Source: Fidelibacterota bacterium
GTDB lineage: Bacteria > Fidelibacterota > Fidelibacteria > Fidelibacterales > Fidelibacteraceae
Assembly (NCBI GenBank): GCA_034723415.1
Contig: JAYEOX010000075.1
Coordinates: 8,427 to 45,397 of the forward strand
Length of the DNA stretch: 36,971 bases
Direction: 5' to 3'
Shown here: in pieces, positions 22,945-36,971 of the stretch
Layout of the letters: every line of letters starts with the position of its first letter
Position numbering within the stretch: the stretch's first letter is position 1
Position numbers and translations under genes: made by a program
Notes under the pieces: model-generated
The model's input: the letters and a program-made list of their open reading frames with translations, nothing else
Database searches by the model: none
Told to the model about the DNA's origin: nothing

Positions 22945-24360
22945 ATGAATTCAATTACAATCGGATTATTTATTTATTTGTTTATAGTATTGTTTGTTGG
23001 TTACAAAGCATTCAGAAAAAACAAGACACATGCGGATTTTTTATTAGCTGATAGAAAGATCGGTGCTTGGGCTCTTTCATTATCTGAACGTGCAAGTGGA
23101 GAATCAGCTTGGCTTTTAGTTGGATTGCCGGGAGCGGTTTTAGCAGTTGGTTATTTGGAAATATGGTCTGTTGTTGGTTGTCTGCTTGGAATATTTTTCG
23201 CTTGGCTATTTATTGCTATTCCGTTAAGAGAACTTGCAGGAAAATATAATTCATTGACTTTGCCGGATTTATTTACTAATTATTTCGATGATAAAGGAAA
23301 TTCTATAAGAATAATCGCATCTTTGATAATTACTTTCTTTTTTACATTCTATGTTGCTGCTCAATTTAGCGGAGCAGGTAAAGTATTAAATGTTACTTTC
23401 GGAATATCTCAACTTCAAGGAATGATCATTGGTGCAGGAATTATTTTGATCTATACACTTTTAGGTGGATTTTTTGCAGTTGTTTGGACAGATGTTGTGC
23501 AGGCGATTTTAATGTTTGCTACTTTAGTGATCTTACCAATTGTTGGATTTATAGAATTGAATAGTATGCCGGCGAATGAAATTCATTCATTAACTCCAAA
23601 TCTTCAATCTTTTGTTGGAAATAAAGTTGGTATTTTTGCTGTTTTAGGAATTATTAGTGGATTAAGTTGGGGGTTGGGATATACCGGACAGCCGCATTTA
23701 TTAATTAGATATATGGCGATCAACAGATCATCACAATTAAAAATCGGTAGAAAAATCGCATTTTCTTGGGCTGTGCCTGCTTTTTTTGGAGCTTTCTTTT
23801 TAGGAATTGTTGGCCTGAAATTATATGGTGCAGAGAAATTCGTTGATCCGGAAAAACTTATGCCTTTTATGGCAACTCATTTATTACCAACTTGGTTTGC
23901 CGGAATATTGATCTCCGGTGCAATTGCCGCAATGATGTCCACCGCAGATTCACAATTGTTGGTAACAACTTCTGCAATAAGTGAAGATATTTATCATAAA
24001 ATCGGTAAGAAAAAAGTTACACCGGAAAGAATGCTTTTAATCAGTAGAGTTGCCACGATAATTATCGGAATTATTGCTTTTCTTTTGGCTTATAAATCAC
24101 AAGATATGGTTTTTGCAATGGTATCTTATGCTTGGTCCGGGTTGGGCGCAAGCTTTGGACCGGTTTTATTATTAATGCTTTATTGGAAAAAAATTACTAA
24201 ACAAGGAGCAATTGCAGGAATGCTTACCGGTGCATTTACAACTGTCGTTTGGAAGAATATTTCTTTTTTAAATGATCTTATCTCAGTTAGATTTATAAGT
24301 TTTGCTTTAGCTCTGTTAACAATTATTATTGTTAGTATTTTGACAAGAAAGGAAAAGTGA
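22945..24360 (+). CDS. putP: Sodium:solute symporter, PutP (Na+/proline) type
   Basis: Many TM helices; S..AS.ESAWL..GLPG, GG..AV.WTD..Q, LGY.GQPH..RYMA, AAMMSTADSQLL, YAW.GLGASFGP. Confidence 0.85.
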   Translation: MNSITIGLFIYLFIVLFVGYKAFRKNKTHADFLLADRKIGAWALSLSERASGESAWLLVGLPGAVLAVGYLEIWSVVGCLLGIFFAWLFIAIPLRELAGKYNSLTLPDLFTNYFDDKGNSIRIIASLIITFFFTFYVAAQFSGAGKVLNVTFGISQLQGMIIGAGIILIYTLLGGFFAVVWTDVVQAILMFATLVILPIVGFIELNSMPANEIHSLTPNLQSFVGNKVGIFAVLGIISGLSWGLGYTGQPHLLIRYMAINRSSQLKIGRKIAFSWAVPAFFGAFFLGIVGLKLYGAEKFVDPEKLMPFMATHLLPTWFAGILISGAIAAMMSTADSQLLVTTSAISEDIYHKIGKKKVTPERMLLISRVATIIIGIIAFLLAYKSQDMVFAMVSYAWSGLGASFGPVLLLMLYWKKITKQGAIAGMLTGAFTTVVWKNISFLNDLISVRFISFALALLTIIIVSILTRKEK

Positions 24361-24505
24361 ACCCGGTGAAATATATATTCGGCCACAATTAAATAATTTT
24401 ACAAATTTAATATGGTAAACATTTACAGAACAAGAAAGGGAAAAAGTATAGAGCGAGTAGGAGAAAATGCGATTGTGTGATTTAAAGAATTGGAAAATGA
24501 TTGTG

Positions 24506-24719
24506 CTTTACCGCAAAGGCGGAGAGACGCAGAGGAAAATAGACAAAAGAAAGATTAACCACAAGAAACACCCTGACATACTTCGCTATAGGGCAGGCAA
24601 AGGAATTCATAAAGGCCACAAGAAAATAATTAATGAATATGAAAAATTAAATAGAATTTAGAAAACCAATCTAAACTTCTTCTTTTCGTCTTTTTTCTCT
24701 CTGCGGACTTTGCGTGAAA
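24506..24719. repeat. Cluster of nonamer-periodic repeats in inverted orientation with a nested REP-like hairpin
   Basis: 24506-24535 matches the reverse complement of 36931-36960 at 23/30 positions; an oppositely oriented copy lies at 24697-24719; CCCT...AGGGCAGGC at 24571-24598. Confidence 0.6.
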
Positions 24720-24831
24720 TCTTTACATGAAATCTTTCAAAAAAAACGCTCAATAAAAATGTTAACCGTTTTCTTTTATTGATTAATTTATAAATAATTT
24801 TTATAATTGAATTTAAATTTAAATAGATCTG

Positions 24832-24863
24832 TTTGTTTTTGAAAAATAATATTGTTAAATTTA
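24832..24863 (+). promoter_or_regulatory. Putative promoter of the GS-family gene (TTGTTT-N17-TAAATT, with TGn extension)
   Basis: TTTG 24832-24835, 20-nt spacer, TAAATTTA 24856-24863. Confidence 0.45.
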
Positions 24864-24930
24864 AACAAATTATTGATGTAACATTGATCTGTCTATTTTG
24901 CATCTGATCAAATAAAAAAAGGAGTAACAA

Positions 24931-26322
24931 ATGGAATTGAGTATTGCTTTTAAACAAAACAAACAACCAAAAGATTTACAAAGAAGTGACATATTGGAAT
25001 ATATTCAAAAAAATGATATTGATACAATATATTTTCAGTATATTGATTTGGAAGGAGAGATTCGCGAATTGGTAATTCCGATTAATTCTATTAAATATGC
25101 GCGTCGAATTCTTGCTTCCGGTGAACGAATTGACGGCAGCAGTGTTTTTAAACAAATTATTCCAACAGACGGATCTGATCTTTACATTATCCCCAATTAT
25201 TCAACAGCTTATAAAAATCCGTTTGATGAAAATTCAATAAATATTATTTGTAATTTTGTAGATAAACATGAAAAACGAGCTGAATTTACACCGAATAATG
25301 TTTTAATAAATGCTGCCAATATGATAAAAGAAAACCATGATCTTGAATTATGGGCATTAGGTGAGTTGGAATTTTATTTAATTGGTGAATATGAAAATAG
25401 CTCATTCAATTTACAAGCTCAAAACGGATATCATCAAACTACACCTTTTCTTAAATATCGTTCAGCAGCAAATGAAATTGCAAAAGTTGTTAGTCAAATT
25501 ACCGGAAATGTAAAATATACTCACAGTGAAGTTGGATATATTCCAAAGATTGAAAAACCGAATTCAAAATGGAATGGAAAACATGCGGAACAATATGAAG
25601 TCGAATTTTTACCGGCACCAATAGAAATCGCCGGATTAAATGTTGCAATTGCAAAATGGGTAGCAAGAAATATTGCCGCGAAATATAAGCTCGGTATTAG
25701 TATTGAACCTAAATTACAGGATGGTCATGCGGGTAATGGACTTCATTTTCATTTAGAACTTTTGAAGAACAAAAATAATATAATGCGTAATGAAAATGGA
25801 GAATTATCAGATGAATCGCTTGCAATAATTGCTGCATTATGTGAATATGCTTCATCATTAACAGCAATGGGAAATAGAGTTGAGTCTTCTTATGAAAGAT
25901 TGAACTCAGGACAGGAAACACCATCAACTGCATATTGGAATGAATTAGACAGAAATGCATTGATAAGAATTCCACTTGCTTGGAAAAATGGTGAAGATAT
26001 GGCTTCAATAATAAATGAAAATAATAGAGAATCATTTCATTCTCCATTTAAAAAACAAACGGTAGAATTGCGTAGTGCTGATGGTTCTGCTAATCATTTT
26101 TTTCTATTAGTTGGAATCTGTCAAGCAATAAATGTAGGATTAAATGATTTGGAAAATTATAAACAAAAAGCAAAACAATATTCAAATCCAGATCATAAAC
26201 TTTTAGAACAATTACCAAAAAATAGAGAAGAAGCAAGTGAATTATTTGATAAAAACAGAGATAGATATTCCGATGTGTTTTCCGAAGAAATTATAGAATA
26301 TATAATTAATTTTTTGAGATAG
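24931..26322 (+). CDS. glnA: Glutamine synthetase family protein (type I-like)
   Basis: DGSS, GELEFY, HSEVG, EQYEVEF, GNGLHFH, SYERL, R.ALIRIP and VELRS.DG catalytic/metal motifs. Confidence 0.8.
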   Translation: MELSIAFKQNKQPKDLQRSDILEYIQKNDIDTIYFQYIDLEGEIRELVIPINSIKYARRILASGERIDGSSVFKQIIPTDGSDLYIIPNYSTAYKNPFDENSINIICNFVDKHEKRAEFTPNNVLINAANMIKENHDLELWALGELEFYLIGEYENSSFNLQAQNGYHQTTPFLKYRSAANEIAKVVSQITGNVKYTHSEVGYIPKIEKPNSKWNGKHAEQYEVEFLPAPIEIAGLNVAIAKWVARNIAAKYKLGISIEPKLQDGHAGNGLHFHLELLKNKNNIMRNENGELSDESLAIIAALCEYASSLTAMGNRVESSYERLNSGQETPSTAYWNELDRNALIRIPLAWKNGEDMASIINENNRESFHSPFKKQTVELRSADGSANHFFLLVGICQAINVGLNDLENYKQKAKQYSNPDHKLLEQLPKNREEASELFDKNRDRYSDVFSEEIIEYIINFLR

Positions 26323-26324
26323 AA

Positions 26325-26369
26325 AAACATCTATTATTTGTTGTTAATTATCAAATTAAATAGATGTTT
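26325..26369 (+). terminator. Stem-loop downstream of glnA (possible terminator)
   Basis: AAACATCTATT (26325-26335) pairs with AATAGATGTTT (26359-26369); inner ATTTG/CAAAT stem. Confidence 0.45.
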
Positions 26370-26415
26370 AATACTTGGATATTTTGTAGAAGTAAAAAAG
26401 AACTTTAAAAAATGT

Positions 26416-26446
26416 TTTGACATTCATTTTAAAGATATTATATTTG
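26416..26446 (+). promoter_or_regulatory. Putative promoter of the suc-fum-hdr-tfr operon
   Basis: TTGACA (26417-26422)-N16-TATATT (26439-26444); also reads as TTTG-N19-TATATTTG. Confidence 0.6.
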
Positions 26447-26545
26447 AAGTCGTGATGAATAGAAAAAAAATAACAAAGAATAAATTATTGGATTATAATT
26501 TGATATAGATTTTAACTAATTATTAATTAAAATTGGGATGTTAAT

Positions 26546-27718
26546 TTGAATATTCATGAGTATCAGGCGAAAAGTATTTTAAGTAAATATGGTGTTGCAA
26601 CATTAGGTGGAAAAGTAGCTTCTACTTCATCTGAGGCAAGAAAAATTGCAGAAGATATCGGTGGTAATATGTGGGTTGTAAAAGCTCAAATTCATGCCGG
26701 TGGAAGAGGGAAAGGTGGTGGAGTAAAATTTGCCAAATCTCTTGATGAAGTCGAGAAACATGCAAAAGATATTCTCGGAATGAATCTTGTTACACATCAG
26801 ACAGGTAGCGAAGGAAAACTTGTTAAAAAAGTATTAATCGTTGAAGCAGGAGATATCAAGCAAGAATTCTATTTAGGAATTGTTCTTGATAGAGAAAAAG
26901 AAATTCCTGTGATGATGGCCTCAACGGAAGGTGGAGTTGAGATTGAAAAAGTTGCAGAAAAGACACCTGAAAAGATAATAAAAATAGAGATAGATCCATT
27001 AGTTGGATTGCAAGGTTTTCAAGCAAGATTATTGGGATTTAAATTAGGCTTTAAGGGCGAACAGATTAAGCATTTTTATAAACTTGCAATGTCACTTTAT
27101 AAAGCATATTATGAAAGTGATTCAAGTTTGGTTGAGATAAATCCTATGGCACTTTTGGATGATGGTTCAATAACTGCACTAGATGCTAAGATGGGTTTTG
27201 ATTCTAATGCTCTATTTCGTCACAAAGATATTCTTGAGATGAGAGATTTTGATGAAGAAGATCCTGTGGAAGTTGAAGCAAGCGAATATGGATTGAGTTA
27301 TGTTAATCTAGATGGAAATGTTGGTTGTATGGTAAATGGTGCAGGTCTTGCAATGTCAACAATGGATATTATCAAACACGAAGGTGGTGAGCCGGCAAAC
27401 TTTTTGGATGTAGGCGGAAAAGCAAATGCTGAAACAGTCGCAAAAGGTTTTGAAATTATTCTAAAAGATAAAAATGTAAAATCGATTTTTATAAATATTT
27501 TCGGTGGAATTGTTCGTTGTGATAGAATTGCAAAAGGAATTATAAAAGCAACTAAAGATAATTCAATTGATGTTCCGATTATTGTTCGTCTTGATGGAAC
27601 AAATGCTGAAGAGGCGATTGAGATATTGAATAAATCTGATATCGATATGCTAATTTCTGCTACTGATTTGTCTGATGGTGCGAAAAAATCCGTAAAATAT
27701 GCAAAGGGAAATATATAA
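26546..27718 (+). CDS. sucC: Succinyl-CoA synthetase beta subunit
   Basis: [55 protein letters not shown] start. Confidence 0.97.
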
Positions 27719-28588
27719 ATGAGTATTTTAGTAAATAAAAATTCAAGAGTAGTTGTACAAGGATTCACAGGAAAAGAGGGAACTTTTCATGCAGAGCAGT
27801 GCATTGATTACGGCACAAATGTTGTTGCTGGAGTTACACCGGGAAAAGGTGGAATTAAACATCTTGGGGTTCCGGTTTTTGATACGGTAAAAGATGCAGT
27901 TGAAGAACAGAAAGCAAATGTGTCATTGATATTTGTTCCTCCAGCATTTTCTGCTGATGCAATTATGGAAGCATCGGATGCAGGGATTGAACTTGTAGTT
28001 TGTATTACCGAAGGAATTCCAACAAAAGATATGATGATTGTAAAAAAATATCTGAAAAAAAATAATACAAAATTACTCGGACCAAATTGCCCGGGAGTTA
28101 TCACACCAAAAGAGGCAAAAATTGGAATTATGCCGGGATTTGTTTTTAAAAAAGGAAAAGTCGGATTGATTTCAAAATCAGGAACATTGACTTATGAGGC
28201 TGCTAATCAGGTTGTAAAAGCTGGATATGGAATTTCAACAGGAATTGGAATCGGTGGTGATCCGATAATTGGATACTCTTTTATTGAGTTATTAGAATTA
28301 TTTGAAGCTGATGATGAGACAGATGCAATTGTAATGATAGGTGAAATCGGTGGTGATTTAGAAATTCAAGCTGCAGAATATATAAAAGAGAATGTTACAA
28401 AACCAGTAGTTGCATTTATTGCAGGACAGACAGCTCCGAAAGGAAAAAGAATGGGACATGCAGGTGCGATTATTGCCGGAAGTAAAGGAACTGCTAAAGA
28501 GAAGATTGAAGCATTGAAAAAAGCTGGTGTAGAAGTTGCAGAAACGGCAGCGATGATTGGTGATACAATAAAAAAAGTATTGGAATAA
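27719..28588 (+). CDS. sucD: Succinyl-CoA synthetase alpha subunit
   Basis: [40 protein letters not shown] (phospho-His). Confidence 0.97.
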
Positions 28589-28600
28589 TAGGAGGTAAAA

Positions 28601-29446
28601 ATGCGTAAAATTCAAGTAAAGAAAATTACTGAAATAATTAAAAAACTTTCAATGGAAGCATCTACGATTGCTAACGATCAACTTATCAATAAATTAAAAG
28701 AGTCGGAAAAAATAGAAGAATCATCTGTTGGTAAAGCTGTTTTAAAGCAATTATTGGAAAATATTGAAATCAGTAAAACTGATAAGACACCAATTTGTCA
28801 AGATACAGGTTTTACTGTAGTATTTATGGATATTGGACAAGATATAAGTTTTGTTGGTGGCTCATTGCAAGATGCTGTAAATAAAGGAGTTGGTGAAGGG
28901 TATACTGAAGGATATTTGAGGAAATCCATAATAAAAGATCCGATAACAAATCCTAAAAATACTGGTGATAATACTCCGGCAATTTTACATACCAATATTG
29001 TTTCCGGAGATAAAGTGGAAATCACACTGTTGCCAAAAGGTGGCGGTGCAGAAAATATGAGTAGAATTAAAATGATGAAACCGGCAGATGGGATTGAAGG
29101 AATAAAGAATTTTGTAATTGAGACGGTGAAAAATGCAGGTGGAAATCCTTGTCCGCCAACGGTGATTGGGGTTGGAATCGGTGGAACTTTTGATTATGTC
29201 GCGTATTTGGCAAAAAAAGCAATTTTGAGAGATTTCGGCGATAGAAATAAGGATAAACAGATTGCAAAATATGAAACTGAATGGTTAGAGGAAATTAATA
29301 AACTTGGAATTGGACCTGCCGGACTTGGCGGAAAAATAACTTCTTTGGATTTATTTATTGAAGTATTTCCTCGTCATATTGCAACATATCCGGTAGCAAT
29401 AAATATTCAATGTAATGCAAATAGAAAGAAAAGTTTTGTTTTGTAG
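28601..29446 (+). CDS. Class I Fe-S fumarate hydratase, alpha subunit (TtdA/FumA-type)
   Basis: [57 protein letters not shown]. Confidence 0.9.
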
Positions 29447-29543
29447 ATTGAAAATTTTAGAAGATGAATTGCAATATAATAAAATATTGTTTAACATTGT
29501 TGATAAATATATAAAAATATAGCGGTTTAAAAAGGAGATATAA

Positions 29544-30095
29544 ATGAGTATTAAATTAACAGCACCATTAACGGAAGATAAAATTAAAGATTTAAAAATT
29601 GGTGATGAAATTTTATTATCAGGAACGATTTATACGGCTCGTGATTCTGCTCACCAAAAATTAGTAGATCTATTGAAAGAAAAAAAGGAATTACCGTTTG
29701 ATCCTGTTGGGAGTGTAATATTTTATGTTGGTCCTTCGCCAGCTCAGCCGGGACAAGCAATTGGAGCAGCAGGACCAACAACAAGTTACAGAATGGATCC
29801 ATTTGCTAATAAAATGATGGAAGTTGGAGTTAAAGGAATGATTGGAAAAGGTGCTCGTTCACAAGAAGTTATTGATGGAATGAAGAAATATTGTGGAGTA
29901 TATTTCGGAGCAACAGGTGGAGCCGCTGCACTTCTCTCAAAATCAGTTTTGGAAGCAGAAGTAATTGCATTTGATGAATTAGGCCCGGAAGCAGTAAGGA
30001 AATTAAAAGTAAAAGATATGCCTTTAATAGTAATTAATGATTGTTATGGAAATGATCTTTATATTGAAGGTAAAAAAAAATGGGAAGAGAAGTAA
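29544..30095 (+). CDS. Class I Fe-S fumarate hydratase, beta subunit (TtdB/FumB-type)
   Basis: G.IYTARD.AH, YVGP, GPTTSYRMD, MIGKG, GGAAAL, LGPEA. Confidence 0.9.
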   Translation: MSIKLTAPLTEDKIKDLKIGDEILLSGTIYTARDSAHQKLVDLLKEKKELPFDPVGSVIFYVGPSPAQPGQAIGAAGPTTSYRMDPFANKMMEVGVKGMIGKGARSQEVIDGMKKYCGVYFGATGGAAALLSKSVLEAEVIAFDELGPEAVRKLKVKDMPLIVINDCYGNDLYIEGKKKWEEK

Positions 30096-30135
30096 AATTA
30101 TATAATTTGTTTTAATTTTAGGAGATTTACTGAAT

Positions 30136-32556
30136 ATGAGAATTGGAGTTTATGTATGCCATTGTGGCGGTAATATTTCTGATGTTGTAGATGTTAAAGC
30201 TGTTGCACAAGAAGCCAAAAAACAGGGTGATGTTATTTTTGCAAAAGATTACTCTCATATGTGTTCGGGTAATGGACAACAAATGGTGATAGATGATATT
30301 AAAGAACATAAATTAGATAAAGTTCTTATATCAGCATGTTCACCACTTTTTCATGGAGAAACTTTTAAGGCTGCAGCAGCAAAAGCAGGTTTAAATCCAT
30401 ATTTAATTGAAATGTCAAATATTAGAGAGCATTGTGCGTGGGTACATTTTGATGACAAAAAGAAGGCAACTGAAAAAGCAAAAGATTTAACGAAAATAGG
30501 TATAGAAAAAGTACGAAATAATGAACCATTGGAAACAATAAAAACACCAATTGGAAAAAGGGTTTTAGTCATTGGTGGTGGAATTGCTGGTATTCAGGCT
30601 GCTCTTGATTTAGGAGATGCTGGTTATAAAGTTCATTTAGTTGAAAAGAAAGCTACGATAGGTGGAAAGATGGCTCAGCTTAGTAGGACTTTTCCTACAA
30701 ACGATTGTGCGGCTTGTATTTTAGGTTCAAAAATGGCAGATGTACCAAAAAACAAAAATATAAAACTAAGTACTTCTTCTGAAATTGAAAAGGTTGAAGG
30801 TACAATTGGTAATTTTAAGGTAACAATTAAAAAGAAACCTACTTATGTTCATCCTGATGCATGTGTTTCTTGTGGAGATTGTGTAACTCCTTGTCCTGTT
30901 TCAATGCCAGATGAAATGCAATGGGGCGTAACTAAAAGAAAAGCTATTTATCTTCCCATAGATTTTGCTGTTCCCAATAAATATCTTATTGATGGTGACA
31001 AGTGTTTAAATATTAAAGCTCAAAAAAAGACAGGTAAACCTTCAAATGTTTGTAAATTGTGTCAGAAAGCTTGTCATCAAGATGCTATAGATTTTAGTAT
31101 GAAACCTGAAAGAGAAGAATTTACAGTGGATACTATTATTGTAACAACCGGCTATGATGTATTTGATGCCACTCGGAAACCTGAATATGGATATGGAAGA
31201 TATGAGAATGTTATGATTGCTCCGGAAGTTGAGAGAGTAATTGTTCATAAAGGAGAGGGAACACCAACTATAGATATGGGAGAGCGAATAGCTTTTATTC
31301 AATGTGTAGGTTCTCGAGACGAACAACTTGGGATAGAATATTGTTCACGAGTATGTTGTATGTATGCTACTAAACTTTCTCAATTATTAAAAAGTATGGC
31401 TAATGTTAATAACGAAAAAAAAGAACTTTATGTATTTTATACTGATATGCGAACTTTTGGAAAGGGATATGAGGAATATTATAAAGCAACTCAAAAAATG
31501 GGTGTAAAATTTGTTAGAGGAAGACCGGCAGAGGTTATTGAAGATCCGGAAACAAAAAAGCTAACTATTAAAGTAGAAGATACTTTAAATAATCGAATAA
31601 TAGAGAGTGAGTTTGATAAAGTGGTTCTTTCAGTTGGAATGCAACTTAGCGAGGGTGGGAATGAAATTGCGGAAATCCTAAAAATTCCTAAAAGTGAAGA
31701 TGGTTTTTTACAAGAAGCTCATCCTAAATTTCGTCCCGTAGATACAGGTAAAGATGGTATCTTTATTGCAGGTACAGCTCAAGGGCCAAAGGATATTCCG
31801 GATTCTGTTGCTCAAGCGAGTGCCACAGCATCACGAGCTATGCGACTTATGAACCAAGGGGAAATAACAGAAGAACCCTTAAAAGCTTTTATTGAAACAG
31901 ATCTTTGTGATGGATGTGGATTGTGTGTAGATAGTTGTCCACCGGGAGCTATTACAATGAGAGATAATAAAGCTGTTGTCAATCCTGTGTTATGTAAAGG
32001 ATGCGGAATGTGTATTGCTTCTTGTCATGTTGATGCTATCGATCTTAATATGTACACTAATAAACAAATGTTAGCACAAGTAGAAGCAGCATTAAAAGAT
32101 AAAAAAGAAAATGAAAGAATAGTTTTAGTATTTGCAAATGATATGTGTGGTTATAAATTGGCTGATTCAGTTGGTACAGCGAAAAAAGCATATAATGATG
32201 CAGTTAGAATTATAAAAGTTCCATCAACAAGTAGAGTTACTACAAAATTGATGCTTCAAGCATTTTCTATGGGAGCTGATGGAATTCTTTTAGCAGATTG
32301 TGAATCGAAATCAAGTGATTTTGCCGGTAGTTTAGAAATGGCAACTGAAAATGTAAATAAGATTAAGAGTATTCTAACTGAAATTAAAGAAAATCCGGAA
32401 AGAGTAATGATTTTTCAATTTGCTACGGTTATGCTTCCGAAATTTGTAATGCTAATGAATAAAATGGCTAAAATTGGTAATGATAATAAACCTATTTCAA
32501 AAGCAAATAGAGAGATACTTGAAAAGAATATATCTAAATGGTTATTTGAGAAATAA
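30136..32556 (+). CDS. hdrA: Heterodisulfide reductase subunit A-like FAD/Fe-S protein fused to a degenerate C-terminal MvhD domain
   Basis: YVCHCGGNI, CSP..H, NIREHC.WVH, VIGGGIAGI (FAD), TFPT.DC..C, inserted and C-terminal ferredoxin motifs, QCVGSRD..YCSRVCCMYATK, EAHPK.RP; MvhD-like tail from about 32116. Confidence 0.93.
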   Translation: MRIGVYVCHCGGNISDVVDVKAVAQEAKKQGDVIFAKDYSHMCSGNGQQMVIDDIKEHKLDKVLISACSPLFHGETFKAAAAKAGLNPYLIEMSNIREHCAWVHFDDKKKATEKAKDLTKIGIEKVRNNEPLETIKTPIGKRVLVIGGGIAGIQAALDLGDAGYKVHLVEKKATIGGKMAQLSRTFPTNDCAACILGSKMADVPKNKNIKLSTSSEIEKVEGTIGNFKVTIKKKPTYVHPDACVSCGDCVTPCPVSMPDEMQWGVTKRKAIYLPIDFAVPNKYLIDGDKCLNIKAQKKTGKPSNVCKLCQKACHQDAIDFSMKPEREEFTVDTIIVTTGYDVFDATRKPEYGYGRYENVMIAPEVERVIVHKGEGTPTIDMGERIAFIQCVGSRDEQLGIEYCSRVCCMYATKLSQLLKSMANVNNEKKELYVFYTDMRTFGKGYEEYYKATQKMGVKFVRGRPAEVIEDPETKKLTIKVEDTLNNRIIESEFDKVVLSVGMQLSEGGNEIAEILKIPKSEDGFLQEAHPKFRPVDTGKDGIFIAGTAQGPKDIPDSVAQASATASRAMRLMNQGEITEEPLKAFIETDLCDGCGLCVDSCPPGAITMRDNKAVVNPVLCKGCGMCIASCHVDAIDLNMYTNKQMLAQVEAALKDKKENERIVLVFANDMCGYKLADSVGTAKKAYNDAVRIIKVPSTSRVTTKLMLQAFSMGADGILLADCESKSSDFAGSLEMATENVNKIKSILTEIKENPERVMIFQFATVMLPKFVMLMNKMAKIGNDNKPISKANREILEKNISKWLFEK

Positions 32557-32570
32557 GGAAGGAATATAAA

Positions 32571-32975
32571 ATGATAAAAAAAATTAAAATAACTTCTCAT
32601 AATCAAACATTTTATGAAAAGGTGAAAACAATAAGTGGTGAAGATATTGCAGTTTGTGATCGATGTGGTGTTTGTACCGGTAGTTGTCCGTTAACAATTG
32701 AAATGGAAATATCACCATCTAATATTATGAAAATGGTTCAGCTTGGCCAAGAAGATGTTATGGATTACAATTCGATGTGGGTTTGTTCTACTTGTAATTA
32801 TTGTACCGCTCGTTGTCCTCGAGGATTAGATGTTTCTAAAGTGACAGAAGCATTGAGACAAATAAGATTACGAACATCTTTTGATAAGATACAAATTGAT
32901 AAAATTCCAAAAGAAGAATTAAAAGATTTACCACAAATAGCATTAGTTGGAGCTTTTAGAAGATTAACTTCATAA
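32571..32975 (+). CDS. hdrC: Heterodisulfide reductase subunit C-like 2x[4Fe-4S] protein
   Basis: CDRCGVCTGSCP and WVCSTCNYCTARCPRG; between hdrA and hdrB. Confidence 0.9.
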   Translation: MIKKIKITSHNQTFYEKVKTISGEDIAVCDRCGVCTGSCPLTIEMEISPSNIMKMVQLGQEDVMDYNSMWVCSTCNYCTARCPRGLDVSKVTEALRQIRLRTSFDKIQIDKIPKEELKDLPQIALVGAFRRLTS

Positions 32976-32993
32976 ATAGAGAGGAAAGAATAG

Positions 32994-33893
32994 ATGAAAA
33001 TACCATATTACCCTGGTTGTACTTTAAAATCAACTGCAAAACATTTTGAAGATTCTGCGATAGAAAGTGCTAAAAAAATAGGAATTGAATTTGTTGAACT
33101 TCCAAGATGGAATTGTTGTGGTGTTGTAGCTCCACTGGCGACTGATGATATTATGCGTCATGTAGCACCGGTGAGAAATATGATAAGAGTACTGGAAATG
33201 AATAGAGATGGATTAGTAAAAGATGAGAAAAGATTACTCACTTTATGTTCAATGTGTTATAGTACTTTAAAAAGATCTAATTTACGAGTAAATGAATTGA
33301 TTGATGATTTAGATGTTCTTAACGATTTTATGTATAAAGAAGAAATGAATTATGATGGAAGTGTAAAGATAGTTCATTTTTTAGAAGTTTTAAAAGAGAT
33401 GGGGTTTGATAAAGTTAAAGACAAAGTTGTCAAATCGTTAGAAAATTTGAATGTTGCAGCATATTATGGTTGCAAATTGTTGAGACCAAAAGAGATCGGA
33501 ATAGATAATAGCGAGGTACCGATTATATTTGAAGATTTTATTTCTGCAATTTCCGCTAATCCGGTTGATTGGCATAATAAAAGTAAGTGTTGTGGAAGTT
33601 TTTTAACAGTAGATAATAAAGAGGTAGTCGTAGATCTTGGATATGATATTTTAACAGATGCTCAAAAATCCGGTGCTGATATAATTGTTACAAGTTGTCC
33701 TTTGTGCGCATATAATCTTGATAATAGACAAAAAAATATTAAAGAAAAATATCCGGAATTTAAAGAAATTCCGGTTGTATATTTTACACAATTAATGGCT
33801 TTGGCATTTGGGTTTCCTAAGGAAATAACTGGTTTCGATGGAAATTATATTAACTCTGTTAAATTGTTTAAATCAAAAAATATTAAAGTATAA
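32994..33893 (+). CDS. hdrB: Heterodisulfide reductase subunit B-like CCG-domain protein
   Basis: YYPGC..WNCCG..CSMC and YYGC.LLRP..CCG..CPLC..NL: both five-Cys CCG sets intact. Confidence 0.92.
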   Translation: MKIPYYPGCTLKSTAKHFEDSAIESAKKIGIEFVELPRWNCCGVVAPLATDDIMRHVAPVRNMIRVLEMNRDGLVKDEKRLLTLCSMCYSTLKRSNLRVNELIDDLDVLNDFMYKEEMNYDGSVKIVHFLEVLKEMGFDKVKDKVVKSLENLNVAAYYGCKLLRPKEIGIDNSEVPIIFEDFISAISANPVDWHNKSKCCGSFLTVDNKEVVVDLGYDILTDAQKSGADIIVTSCPLCAYNLDNRQKNIKEKYPEFKEIPVVYFTQLMALAFGFPKEITGFDGNYINSVKLFKSKNIKV

Positions 33894-33943
33894 ATATTCT
33901 TCAAAAGTGAATAAAATAAAAATTTGAATATGAGGTATAAATA

Positions 33944-34633
33944 ATGACTGACAAAAGAAAAATGATCAATGTTTTTATTATGGGTGAAGCACAAAAAGTT
34001 CCTGAAGGTTCTACAATTTTAAATGCTATTGAATATGCAGGATATCAACTAAAGAAAGGTGTTGGTTGTAGAGAAGGGTTTTGTGGTGCTTGTGCAACGG
34101 TTTATAGAGAAAAAGGAGATTATAAATTAAAAGGGGGACTTGCATGTCAGACAGTCGCTACAGATGGAATGTCATTAGTTCAAATTCCTTTTGTTCCGGC
34201 AGAAAAACCTGTTTACGATATGGATAAAATAACTCCAGATATAAATACAATAAAGGAATTGTTTCCCACAGTATTTCGCTGTCTTGCTTGTAATACTTGC
34301 ACGAAAGCGTGTCCCCAAGATATTCAAGTTATGGATTATGTTCAAGCCCTTAAACAAGGTAATATTGCCGAAGCTGCTGATTTATCTTTTGATTGCATTC
34401 GTTGTGGATTGTGTGCTTTGCGTTGTCCTGCTGAAATTGTTCAATACAATGCAGGAACCTTAGCGCGAAGATTATATGGCAAATATTTAGCTAAAAAAAG
34501 TCCTGAATTAATAAAACGAGTAGAGGAGATTGAAGATGGTAAATATGACCAAGAAATAAAGGAATTAAAAGAAATGAATAGGAAAGATCTTACTGAAAAA
34601 TATTATTCTCGTGAAATTAAGTTGGATACTTGA
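33944..34633 (+). CDS. Fumarate reductase/succinate dehydrogenase Fe-S subunit, TfrB N-terminal-like ([2Fe-2S] + 2x[4Fe-4S])
   Basis: GCREGFCGAC...LACQ, CLACNTCTKACP, CIRCGLCALRCP; no CCG domain, no TM helix. Confidence 0.85.
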   Translation: MTDKRKMINVFIMGEAQKVPEGSTILNAIEYAGYQLKKGVGCREGFCGACATVYREKGDYKLKGGLACQTVATDGMSLVQIPFVPAEKPVYDMDKITPDINTIKELFPTVFRCLACNTCTKACPQDIQVMDYVQALKQGNIAEAADLSFDCIRCGLCALRCPAEIVQYNAGTLARRLYGKYLAKKSPELIKRVEEIEDGKYDQEIKELKEMNRKDLTEKYYSREIKLDT

Positions 34634-35092
34634 TACTTGATACTTGATGTTAAATTCTGATAATTAATAATTAAAAGGTGAATATGAGAGAGATTTACGA
34701 ATATAATGTGTATAAATTGGCGGAAGAATTGTCAGATAAAATCTGGAATGATTTTGACAACTGGTCTTCAAAGGTTCGTAACACAATTGGTTATCAGATT
34801 ATTAGGTCATCGGATAGTATTTCAGCTAATTTAGCAGAAGGTTATGGTCGGTATTCCAGTGCAGATAAAAAGAAATTTTACTATTATTCTCGTGGTTCAT
34901 TTGAAGAAACAAAAGCATGGCTTCGTAAATTATATAAACGAGAAGTTATTTTTAAAAAAATAATGCAAGAATACAAAAAAATAATAGATGAATTAGGTCC
35001 AAAATTAAATGGATTCATCAACAGTACAAAAATAGAGAAAAAATGATAAGTGTCAAATATAAAACATCAAAAAGTATCAAGCATCAAGTATC
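34625..35092. mobile_element. Putative intervening element: four-helix-bundle gene flanked by inverted tandem-heptamer arms
   Basis: Left arm (GATACTT)x3+GATGTT at 34625-34651; right arm AACATC-AAA-AAGTATC-AAGCATC-AAGTATC at 35063-35092, its reverse complement with one mismatch and a 3-nt bulge; mobility is inferred. Confidence 0.55.
34684..35046 (+). CDS. Four helix bundle protein (23S rRNA intervening-sequence protein / Avd-like family)
   Basis: VYKLA..L, QI.RS.DSI.AN.AEGYGR, F..YSRGS..ET..WL, LNGFI motifs; ATG 34684 behind AAGGTG. Confidence 0.9.
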   Translation: MREIYEYNVYKLAEELSDKIWNDFDNWSSKVRNTIGYQIIRSSDSISANLAEGYGRYSSADKKKFYYYSRGSFEETKAWLRKLYKREVIFKKIMQEYKKIIDELGPKLNGFINSTKIEKK

Positions 35093-35169
35093 AAATGCCT
35101 TTGTTTTAAAAAAGTTCACACAACTAAAAAATATTAAACAAAATAATAGAAAATAGTAGGAGGTAATAT

Positions 35170-36840
35170 ATGTATCCTGAATATATGATGGAATCAATTA
35201 AGAAAGTAGAAAAGACCAGGCCACGTCGTTTGGAATTAGTTAAAAAATATGGGAAACAAGTATTTCCGGGAATGAGTGAAAAAGAGAGAGGGGATATATT
35301 AGAAAAGTATCATCCGGATTATCATAAAAATGCACGGCGAGAAATTCACGTTGGACCAAATAAAGGTGAAAAATTGACTACAAAAGTTGCCGATATGCTT
35401 GAATCACATTCTCGAATCGATCCGAGAAAGCTTGATCTTAATAAAGTGGATTTTGAAACTGATGTGTTAGTAATTGGAGCAGGTTCTGCAGGATTGTCTG
35501 CATCAATAACCGCCGCTAATAATGGTAGTGATGTTCTGCTTGTGACAAAATTACGATTAGGTGATTCTAACTCAATGATGGCTCAAGGTGGTATTCAAGC
35601 AGCCGATCAAGATGACGATTCACCTTCAATACATTATCTTGATGTGATCGGAGGAGGTCATTTTGACAATAAACCCGAATTAGTGGAAGCATTAGTGAAA
35701 GATGCTCCGAAATCAATCCAATGGCTGGAAAATTTGGGGGTAATGTTTGATAAAAATCCTGATGGTTCGATGTCAGTGAAACCTGGTGGAGGCACATCCA
35801 GAAACAGAATGCATTCAGCAAGAGATTATACTGGAGCGGGAATCTGTCGTGTGTTGAGAGATGAAGTTTATAACAAACCAGATAAAATTAAATATATAGA
35901 ATATACAGCAATTGTTGAATTGATCCTGAATGAAAAAGGTGATGCAGTGGGAGCAGTTGCATATCATATTGACACTAAACAATATTCTATAATCAAAGCG
36001 AAATCCGTTATTATTTCTACAGGCGGATTCGGACGATTACATATAGAAGGATTCGAAACAACTAATCATTATGGTGCGACAGCCGATGGATTAGTAATTG
36101 CCTATCGTGCAGGAGCAAATTTATTATATATGGATTCAGTTCAATATCATCCTACTGGAGCTGTTTTCCCAGAACAAATTGTTGGATTTCTTTGTACTGA
36201 AAAATTAAGGACTTTGGGAGCACAGCCATTAAATAAAAATGGTGAATTATTTGTATACCCCTTAGAACCACGTGATATTGAAGCATCCACATTAATTCGA
36301 GAATGTGATAATAATTTGGGAATTACAACTCCATCCGGATTAAAAGGTGTATGGCTTGATTCTCCCTTAATAGAACAAATTATGGGTGAGGGAACAATAG
36401 ATAAAAATCTACCGGCAATGGTAAGACAATATAGCAGATTTGATATTGATATACGAAAATATCCTATGTTAGTTTATCCAACCCTTCACTATCAAAATGG
36501 TGGAATTGAGATAAACAAAAAAGGTGAAACCTCAATTAAAGGATTGTATGTTGCTGGCGAAGCTTCCGGTGGTTTACATGGTAGAAATAGATTGATGGGA
36601 AATTCACAACTGGATTTAATTGTTTTTGGTAGAAGAGCTGGATTAAATGCTTCTAAAAGAGCAAAAGGGAAAGTGGTTTTTGGTAAATTAAGTTTAGAAC
36701 ATGTAAATAAATATGAAAAAGAAGTAGAAAAATTAGGCATTGATAAAAAACAAATTGCTCCTGTTATATTACCGGATTATATTCCAGATCATATCAAGAA
36801 AAGACAACTTACTTCTGAATTTTATGGTAATTTGGGATAA
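35170..36840 (+). CDS. Fumarate reductase/succinate dehydrogenase flavoprotein, TfrA-like (soluble)
   Basis: VIGAGSAG (FAD), AQGG, GG.S..R, STGGFG, QYHPTG, TE.LR, EPRD, PTLHYQNGG, AGE..GGLHG.NRL.GNS. Confidence 0.88.
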   Translation: MYPEYMMESIKKVEKTRPRRLELVKKYGKQVFPGMSEKERGDILEKYHPDYHKNARREIHVGPNKGEKLTTKVADMLESHSRIDPRKLDLNKVDFETDVLVIGAGSAGLSASITAANNGSDVLLVTKLRLGDSNSMMAQGGIQAADQDDDSPSIHYLDVIGGGHFDNKPELVEALVKDAPKSIQWLENLGVMFDKNPDGSMSVKPGGGTSRNRMHSARDYTGAGICRVLRDEVYNKPDKIKYIEYTAIVELILNEKGDAVGAVAYHIDTKQYSIIKAKSVIISTGGFGRLHIEGFETTNHYGATADGLVIAYRAGANLLYMDSVQYHPTGAVFPEQIVGFLCTEKLRTLGAQPLNKNGELFVYPLEPRDIEASTLIRECDNNLGITTPSGLKGVWLDSPLIEQIMGEGTIDKNLPAMVRQYSRFDIDIRKYPMLVYPTLHYQNGGIEINKKGETSIKGLYVAGEASGGLHGRNRLMGNSQLDLIVFGRRAGLNASKRAKGKVVFGKLSLEHVNKYEKEVEKLGIDKKQIAPVILPDYIPDHIKKRQLTSEFYGNLG

Positions 36841-36881
36841 GAAGAATTATAATTTGAAAACAAGGTTTAGATTGAGAATAA

Positions 36882-36961
36882 ACCGTTCATTGAGTGAAGT
36901 CGAAGTGCGGTAAAGTCCACATTAATTTATTCTCTGCGTTTTTGTGTCTCTGCGGTAAAGT
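36882..36961. repeat. REP-like hairpin plus nonamer-family repeat at the operon end
   Basis: ACCG...GAGTGAAGTCGAAGTG-CGGT imperfect palindrome 36882-36911; TGCGGTAAAGT direct repeat at 36906 and 36951; 36931-36960 homologous to 24506-24535. Confidence 0.55.
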
Positions 36962-36971
36962 AATTAAAACC

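Follow-up and report, generated by a model that had tools for sequence, protein, structure and literature searches.

The stretch of DNA analysed here (the window) comprises 36,971 nucleotides of contig JAYEOX010000075.1 from a Fidelibacterota bacterium (assembly GCA_034723415.1). It carries an array of ten genes that joins succinyl-CoA synthetase (SCS) and a two-subunit fumarase to a heterodisulfide reductase-like set (HdrABC) and to a flavoprotein and iron-sulfur (Fe-S) subunit of the fumarate reductase/succinate dehydrogenase (Frd/Sdh) superfamily. The operon is read here, with about even confidence, as encoding a soluble fumarate reductase fed by HdrABC, which would be driven by reduced ferredoxin without electron bifurcation and would supply succinyl-CoA for the formation of 2-oxoglutarate or propionate. 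Gene content, residues, linkage and the inventory of the genome are observations; substrate, direction, donor, assembly into a complex and role in the cell are inferred. Its real distinguishing feature, which the first-pass annotation of this DNA overlooked in part, is a donor-less state combined with an MvhD domain that has lost the ligands of its cluster. The packaging itself, which that annotation had considered undescribed, is already in print from genomes, both in a version free of Flx (Williams et al., 2021; PMC8542988) and in Flx-containing versions (PMC7282089; PMC6315080); the donor-less, cluster-less form is what differs here.

The MvhD-like domain is fused to the C-terminus of HdrA. 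The HdrA model superposes on the solved methanogen enzyme 5odi_A (Z 37.6, root-mean-square deviation 4.2, 620 aligned positions), and its nearest NCBIfam model is HdrA2 (921 bits, cut-off 1100 not reached). Both ferredoxin domains are kept, as are Lys413 and Glu366 (equivalent to Lys409/Glu356) and Cys194 (equivalent to Cys197). The Lys/Glu pair near the HdrA flavin adenine dinucleotide (FAD) has been proposed as a mark of bifurcation (PMC12054007), and the cysteine is described as a dimer ligand (PMC9012536). The motif CX2CX25CX24CX4C is conserved in HdrA2 of Methanosarcina acetivorans (PMC5296606). In the window's fused domain the five [2Fe-2S]-motif cysteine positions read N-C-S-C-S, leaving two of the five cysteines. 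None of the 19 aligned fused proteins keeps more than two, and four keep none; these four have also lost one C-terminal ferredoxin cysteine. The inserted ferredoxin domain and the Lys/Glu pair are intact in all 19. The set is biased, because ten of the 19 came from a search that used the degenerate domain itself, and it may include closely related rows; the Glu356 equivalent is given for these 19 only, since its pattern did not match most HdrAs linked to a donor. Of the free MvhDs in the loci compared below, 42 of 46 have all five cysteines and the other 4 have four. The cluster-less domain is nevertheless predicted to fold confidently (predicted local distance difference test, pLDDT, ~77-95) and carries invariant residues, among them Ser697 at one of the cysteine positions.

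A quick HdrA-core tree with a midpoint root (36 rows: the window, 8 of the 10 retrieved proteins, without P0002 and P0005, and 27 HdrAs of loci chosen by hand) put 13 of the 14 degenerate proteins to the same side of a branch supported by a Shimodaira-Hasegawa-like approximate likelihood ratio (SH-aLRT) of 100, with L008 separate. Judged by alignment and tree, the degenerate HdrAs are a distinct subfamily. At L008 (3619-8454) two hdrA genes stand in tandem: one has a fused MvhD that is free of cysteines and lies outside the main degenerate clade, and the other is followed by an intact MvhD. Three MvhD genes elsewhere (L098, L102, L105; G041:C157) each contain one in-frame TGA, probably encoding selenocysteine. 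No description of a cluster-less MvhD or of the donor-less, cluster-less operon form was found in the accessible literature, including the available parts of PMC6019823, PMC12054007, PMC5296606 and PMC9012536; subscription papers and bioRxiv supplements lay outside the search.

The operon has no donor module. The first-pass annotation had allowed that a membrane anchor, Mvh, Fdh, Flx, DsrC or TusA might be encoded elsewhere; none was found, and Flx not in complete form, in the rest of the genome, which is 94.4% complete, so that absences given here and below are not proven. The fused domain is the sole MvhD match in six genomes (G000, G001, G002, G059, G112, G043), and neither a second MvhD nor an FlxC-like match was found in the window's genome. 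The same holds for molybdopterin oxidoreductases such as Fdh, for DsrC, TusA and DsrE2, and for the membrane anchor Sdh_cyt (PF02300-type anchors were not searched). Neither half of the operon is accounted for by a conventional module in this genome. A DsrE2-family gene lies just upstream of degenerate hdrA in three other loci (L133:6723-7082, L132:15660-16073, L038:4823-5182). Its product was considered as a required thiol carrier and rejected, because a protein not found in the window's genome cannot be required unless its gene is unassembled there.

The acceptor side of the operon is a flavoprotein/Fe-S pair. The flavoprotein family holds at least 8000 sequences at E <= 1e-100, and the nearest named proteins among the matches listed are 87-88% identical, from records labelled Neomarinimicrobiota. 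The best NCBIfam model is TfrA (326 bits, under the cut-off of 718); NadB scores 272 bits against a cut-off of 453, which is not reached, and a separate NadB-like open reading frame (ORF), identified from its sequence, lies on contig C160. In the fold search about 450 columns of the model (pLDDT 74) match Frd/Sdh flavoproteins; an N-terminal extension of about 95 residues is family-specific, and the C-terminal helical domain had no match. The dicarboxylate site (H327, T343, E344, R368, H440, R474) matches that of Escherichia coli FrdA residue for residue and does not vary among the 16 aligned sequences. The pair is read, at the same even level of confidence as the explanation as a whole, as a soluble, quinone-independent fumarate reductase.

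Covalent FAD is required for succinate oxidation, and non-covalent FAD allows fumarate reduction. In the window's flavoprotein Asn134 aligns with the covalent-FAD His of FrdA, and among 75 relatives the position holds Asn in 71 and never His (4 unmatched). The reaction is probably reductive, because this His is replaced by Asn, and for the same reason the suggestion that the module might drive endergonic succinate oxidation now appears unlikely. That oxidative alternative would have succinate from glutamate, propionate or branched-chain amino acids oxidised to fumarate in a confurcating reaction, with reduced ferredoxin providing the drive at HdrA, NAD+ accepting electrons and SCS yielding ATP. 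The genome offers suitable surroundings (glutamate dehydrogenase, KorAB-like genes, a methylmalonyl-CoA pathway, hydrogenases), and PMC12590816 places these enzymes under propionate oxidation in Cloacimonadota. Against it stand the missing His in 71 of 71 matched sequences, a computed reaction energy of ~ +18 to +33 kJ/mol, a cluster-less MvhD that gives electrons no obvious exit, and the operon of Pseudoclostridium thermosuccinogenes, which has the same gene set and is assigned to succinate production. It is regarded as improbable.

Whether the two halves act together bears on the reading as well. The Fe-S subunit carries no CCG domain, and on the TfrB model (cut-off 385) it scores 34 bits and HdrB 46 bits. 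HdrB keeps both CCG motifs; in the second, the His that follows the first Cys in solved archaeal HdrB is replaced by Lys. Its scores are near equal on HdrB (170 bits) and SdhE (169 bits), both under cut-off. The proposal that the TfrB architecture is split here therefore survives as an analogy of architecture and fails as a statement of descent. A complex prediction of HdrB with the Fe-S subunit, made from their own alignments, gave no verdict (0.01 twice against a mark of 0.32, in a set-up whose controls were not folded). A further reading has the halves uncoupled: the CCG protein would be a quinone partner of the SdhE/MfrE type, or the pair would act on another substrate or independently of Hdr. 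The equal fit of HdrB to SdhE of methylmenaquinol:fumarate reductase, some loci with a reductase pair and no Hdr in view (L003, L040) and the two full 4Fe-4S motifs of the Fe-S subunit, which are reminiscent of type E enzymes, speak for it. Quinone genes do not: MqnA was not found, and neither UbiA-family protein of the genome matches MenA. HdrA and HdrC are moreover co-encoded with HdrB, and the linkage of the pair to Hdr and tricarboxylic acid (TCA) cycle genes extends over several phyla. This reading is considered highly improbable.

The Hdr-fumarate reductase linkage is widely conserved. It was followed in 80 loci, the best 80 of at least 577 relatives from at least 599 candidate stretches in the genome scan, many of them cut by contig ends. 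An Fe-S partner gene is present in 73 of the 80 and an Hdr gene in 60; donor-type genes of any kind occur in 58 (Flx-like in 31, MvhG/A in 20). TCA-linked neighbours include Kor (36/80), fumarase (14/80) and SCS (11/80, where one count, L062, includes matches resembling ATP-citrate lyase, ACL). Degenerate-MvhD status was taken from alignments, and the locus tally for 'no MvhD seen' includes the fused degenerate loci. Among 151 genomes of the phylum the flavoprotein occurs in 21, all within the 46 that have an MvhD-family match; it is patchy, being present in three of four other genomes of the genus and in none of 20 from the family's other genera. These counts support the earlier idea of a fumarate/succinate module in the cytoplasm that is coupled to Hdr and whose linkage is conserved. 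The donor-less order hdrA::mvhD-C-B-FeS-flavoprotein recurs in L002, L004, L006, L017, L038, L086, L087, L113, L133 and L134, and is partly kept in L088, L114 and L135.

Other arrangements were seen among these loci. In L132 (G071:C24:1-20000) and L138 (G122:C312) a degenerate hdrA::mvhD-C-B set is followed directly by mvhG, and in L132 an intact Mvh-Hdr set stands in tandem with the degenerate one ahead of one reductase. The window-type operon resembles one half of this double cluster and the Mvh-type operon the other, as alternatives, and the G071 tandem suggests alternative inputs to the same enzyme. In L135 (G050:C30) a degenerate-type operon precedes sucCD and a pair made up of a GlcD/GlcF-like FAD-oxidase and a CCG protein. 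Low-scoring fused MvhDs of other phylum members were set aside, as they belong to a different cluster without a reductase: kor(D)ABG, a GltD-like::MvhD, an HdrD-like gene and a split HdrA::MvhD, recurrent in L130, L131, L136, L137 and L139. In L131 this cluster is followed by apparent citrate synthase and malate dehydrogenase genes.

In most relatives MvhD would serve as the dock for a donor module, Flx when the source is NADH and MvhAG when it is H2, and HdrA would bifurcate the electrons. In the window's lineage the donor genes would have gone and the [2Fe-2S] ligands of the fused MvhD been lost; with this entry port lost, electrons would probably arrive by a different route, ferredoxin being the likeliest source. 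Reduced ferredoxin would enter at the intact ferredoxin domain of HdrA and pass its electrons through FAD, HdrC, HdrB and the Fe-S subunit to fumarate. It is the simplest input because the MvhD port appears dead and because the same activity has been demonstrated for HdrA2B2C2 of M. acetivorans, which oxidises reduced ferredoxin to reduce a disulfide and for which NAD is no substitute for F420 (PMC5296606). Transfer from HdrB to the reductase may proceed by direct contact or through a thiol/disulfide carrier, the two being about equally probable. Ferredoxin-reducing enzymes of the genome comprise POR-, VOR- and KorAB-like proteins, and a small ferredoxin is also encoded.

Several points weigh against such a ferredoxin-driven reaction. 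The bifurcation-linked Lys413/Glu366 pair is kept throughout the 19 fused proteins, and ferredoxin-driven fumarate reduction would dissipate ~87-103 kJ/mol (computed from redox potentials). Ferredoxin spent on fumarate is also ferredoxin that KorAB needs. The match between donor-less and cluster-less states amounts to one or two events, because the degenerate HdrAs form one clade with L008 apart; intact MvhD occurs without a donor gene in view in five loci, of which L031 and L064 have full 10-kb flanks; and the degenerate set adjoins Mvh genes in G071 and G122. The genome encodes an AsrA/AsrB-like (FlxB/FlxA-like) pair on C6, and in Riftia symbionts tfrAB departed from the expression pattern of its cluster (PMC11636981).

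Since the ferredoxin route is wasteful and the bifurcation residues persist, direct NAD(P)H or an in-trans donor remains a serious rival, although we rate it as unlikely. Here the reaction would be reductive and still bifurcating: NAD(P)H would pass electrons straight to the HdrA FAD, in the manner of F420H2 in HdrA2B2C2, or a donor from another locus would dock on the cluster-free MvhD, and electrons would be split between fumarate and ferredoxin, supplying KorAB. The AsrAB-like pair, encoded with a group 4 hydrogenase on C6, and a Hox-like NiFe hydrogenase set on C4 are candidate donors, and the MvhD-like domain has invariant surface residues, which count in favour of this reading. Oxidation of 2 NADH with fumarate and 2 oxidised ferredoxins would yield ~ -33 kJ/mol (computed from redox potentials). 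NADH has been proposed in place of F420H2 for bacterial homologues (PMC5296606), and the Flx and Mvh versions are modelled as bifurcating in the literature. Set against this, the operon has no NAD-binding module, a docked donor finds no cluster to which electrons could be passed, and the joint loss of a C-terminal ferredoxin cysteine in the four members without MvhD cysteines fits decay of the input arm. A more specific proposal, held tentatively, is a five-subunit HdrABC-reductase that has given up the MvhD port, takes electrons from ferredoxin backwards through the low-potential arm or from NAD(P)H at the bifurcating flavin, and is wired directly from the non-cubane clusters of HdrB to the reductase without a free thiol. 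If true, this form would be a swappable second input beside Mvh-Hdr, as the G071 tandem set suggests, and a bacterial HdrABC would have a carbon substrate, not a disulfide, as its physiological acceptor.

Under the favoured ferredoxin-driven reading, the soluble pair would use electrons supplied by HdrABC to reduce fumarate derived from malate or amino acids, within a reductive C4 branch from malate through fumarate and succinate to succinyl-CoA, SCS catalysing the last step. Succinyl-CoA would then be converted to 2-oxoglutarate by the KorAB-like enzyme or, with Na+ export, to propionate by the methylmalonyl-CoA route, for which the genome carries an operon of mutase, epimerase and Na+-pumping decarboxylase. 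A phosphoenolpyruvate carboxykinase gene adjoins malic enzyme, and Rnf-like genes and an ADP-forming acyl-CoA ligase are also present. A full reductive TCA (rTCA) role was rejected: no ACL-like protein and neither type of citrate synthase (Si-citrate synthase, HMGL-like synthase) was found in the genome. The aconitase- and isocitrate dehydrogenase-family matches look like homoaconitase (G000:C64:3-1970) and homoisocitrate dehydrogenase (C7:2328-3446), plus a weaker family member. This homoaconitase set without an HMGL-family synthase may reflect incomplete assembly or a catabolic role.

Two Mrp/Nuo-like membrane complexes (G000:C8:10000-19600 and C10) have NuoD-like subunits without nickel-binding motifs and NuoI-like subunits fused to a GltD-like NAD(P)H domain. 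One of the UbiA-family genes lies together with a geranylgeranyl-reductase-like gene and a small ferredoxin (G000:C123:5274-7583); with a prenyltransferase resembling digeranylgeranylglyceryl phosphate (DGGGP) synthase (G000:C92:3542-4522) they make up a bacterial set of lipid genes of archaeal type, as is also reported for lineages of the Fibrobacteres-Chlorobi-Bacteroidetes (FCB) group.

The ten-gene array (26546-36840) is real, co-oriented and anchor-free: all ten ORFs lie on the + strand, with spacers of 0, 12, 97, 40, 14, 18, 50, 44 and 123 nt in 5' to 3' order, and no product has a transmembrane-like stretch (highest 19-residue hydropathy 1.54) or a twin-arginine (Tat) motif, as the first-pass annotation had it. 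The four SCS and fumarase subunits score above their NCBIfam cut-offs. The five Hdr and reductase proteins (HdrA::MvhD, HdrC, HdrB, Fe-S subunit, flavoprotein) are evident homologues of their families, each below all equivalog cut-offs. Features are collected in Table 1.

Table 1. Features of the operon region, in positions of the window.
Feature	Position	Strand	Basis
Sigma70-like promoter candidate, 5' of sucC	26417..26444	+	TTGACA-16-TATATT, score 11/12, top of 70 sites
sucC, SCS beta, TTG start	26546..27718	+	PRK00696 573 bits, cut-off 370
sucD, SCS alpha	27719..28588	+	PRK05678 456 bits, cut-off 336
Class I Fe-S fumarase alpha	28601..29446	+	PRK06246 399 bits, cut-off 276
Class I Fe-S fumarase beta	29544..30095	+	PRK06842 272 bits, cut-off 238
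HdrA fused to cluster-less MvhD-like domain, 806 aa	30136..32556	+	702 bits to 5odc_A
MvhD-like domain, ~residues 663-806	32122..32556	+	Pfam FlpD 4e-26; E 4.6e-10 to solved MvhD
hdrC, 2x[4Fe-4S]	32571..32975	+	TIGR03290 64 bits, cut-off 160; two ferredoxin motifs
hdrB, two CCG motifs, all ten cysteines	32994..33893	+	Sole CCG protein found in genome
Fe-S subunit of putative fumarate reductase, 229 aa	33944..34633	+	[2Fe-2S] motif and two complete 4Fe-4S motifs
Inserted four-helix-bundle gene with flanking repeats	34631..35095 (gene 34678-35046)	+	TIGR02436; repeat ends approximate
Frd/Sdh-superfamily flavoprotein, 556 aa	35170..36840	+	Alignment to E. coli FrdA 2b76, invariant columns, fold search

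The number of promoter-like sites in the window (70) is close to chance (62.8 +/- 8.1 in shuffled sequences); TTGAT(G/A)-16-TATATT, with the same spacing as the window's candidate, is kept upstream in two relatives (L087 and L114). Two terminator-like matches on the + strand both fall within coding sequence, and an Rfam scan of 24000-36971 gave nothing at gathering scores. The contig stops 131 nt past the last gene, so anything farther downstream is unseen; in L087, which has the same operon, a fragment of malic enzyme lies ~3.7 kb downstream, without any donor gene. The four-helix-bundle gene is judged to be a passenger outside the module, because it is flanked by short inverted heptamer repeats, is missing from the equivalent spacer in L086, L087 and L113 and has six homologous matches within the window's genome; it is present in 4 of the 80 loci. 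In L086 and L087 the spacer between the Fe-S and flavoprotein genes holds a longer heptamer array and no gene, and in other loci four-helix-bundle-type or PD-(D/E)XK genes occur at varied operon spacers. Directly upstream (24931-26322), and likewise in L087 and L114, lies a glutamine synthetase-family gene, which would suit a connection with 2-oxoglutarate/glutamate metabolism but may be local synteny.

The operon addresses the question of what substrate bacterial HdrABC uses in cells that have no coenzyme M, coenzyme B or DsrC. It is a minimal version, with five subunits, no hydrogenase to mature and a single CCG protein found in the genome, which makes it a practical construct for distinguishing a thiol shuttle from a direct wire and for defining the role of the MvhD cluster. 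Such a system would explain how fermenters without quinones produce succinate or propionate, or form 2-oxoglutarate when citrate synthase is missing, and why Sdh/Frd is scored as absent from such genomes during annotation.

The thiol:fumarate reductase (TFR) of Methanothermobacter, TfrAB, is soluble and anchor-free and works with Hdr through the thiols CoM-SH and CoB-SH. The window's pair likewise has no membrane anchor, and TfrA is the nearest NCBIfam model for its flavoprotein. It differs from TfrAB in that neither subunit comes near its cut-off, the Fe-S subunit is not fused to CCG domains, the flavoprotein has an extra N-terminal part and no C-terminal domain match, and the 94.4%-complete genome gave no match to ComA, an enzyme of coenzyme M synthesis. 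Compared with canonical Sdh/Frd (complex II), it shares the dicarboxylate residues and lacks both the covalent-FAD His and the anchor. Like HdrA2B2C2 of M. acetivorans, the operon encodes an HdrA-MvhD fusion without a separate donor module. HdrA2, however, keeps the full cysteine motif, has an iron content that fits a [2Fe-2S] cluster and uses F420H2, and only the window's HdrABC is tied to a fumarate reductase.

Among bacterial clusters, one of the closest published is that of Ca. Celaenobacter (Cloacimonadota), in which TFR, 2-oxoglutarate:ferredoxin oxidoreductase (OGOR), fumarase, SCS, Mvh and Hdr are encoded together without Flx and a reductive role was proposed from the genes (Williams et al., 2021; PMC8542988). 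The window's operon shares the grouping of soluble fumarate reductase, Hdr, fumarase and SCS without Flx; it differs from what is described there in having neither the Mvh hydrogenase, nor any other donor module, nor OGOR, in its cluster-less fused MvhD and, because no ACL or citrate synthase was found, in lacking a full rTCA cycle. The 'succinate operon' of the succinate producer P. thermosuccinogenes comprises fumarase, Flx-Hdr and fumarate reductase, with bifurcation proposed (Koendjbiharie, 2020; PMC7282089). Two reductase genes (675 and 1602 nt) follow hdr there, close in size to those of the window, a match of size only, and FlxABCD provides an NADH input that the window's operon lacks. 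In tubeworm symbionts and Thioflavicoccus a korABCD-tfrAB-flxABCD-hdrABC cluster is described (Rubin-Blum, 2019; PMC6315080; Mitchell, 2024; PMC11636981), and this gene order was also seen among the Flx-type loci of the present analysis. The symbiont cluster resembles the window's operon in that Hdr is proposed to feed the reductase directly or via a thiol; it differs in being interspersed with Flx and OGOR, within a complete rTCA cycle. A bioRxiv preprint on HdrA gives the Sdh/Frd connection only as STRING links, and neither a biochemical test of this arrangement nor a purified Hdr-linked fumarate reductase was found in the literature searched, subscription papers and a 2019 preprint being outside reach. 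Unlike the Flx- and Mvh-Hdr-Frd clusters as a group, the window's operon has no donor module with an intact MvhD; like them, it links hdrABC to the reductase pair and to TCA genes.

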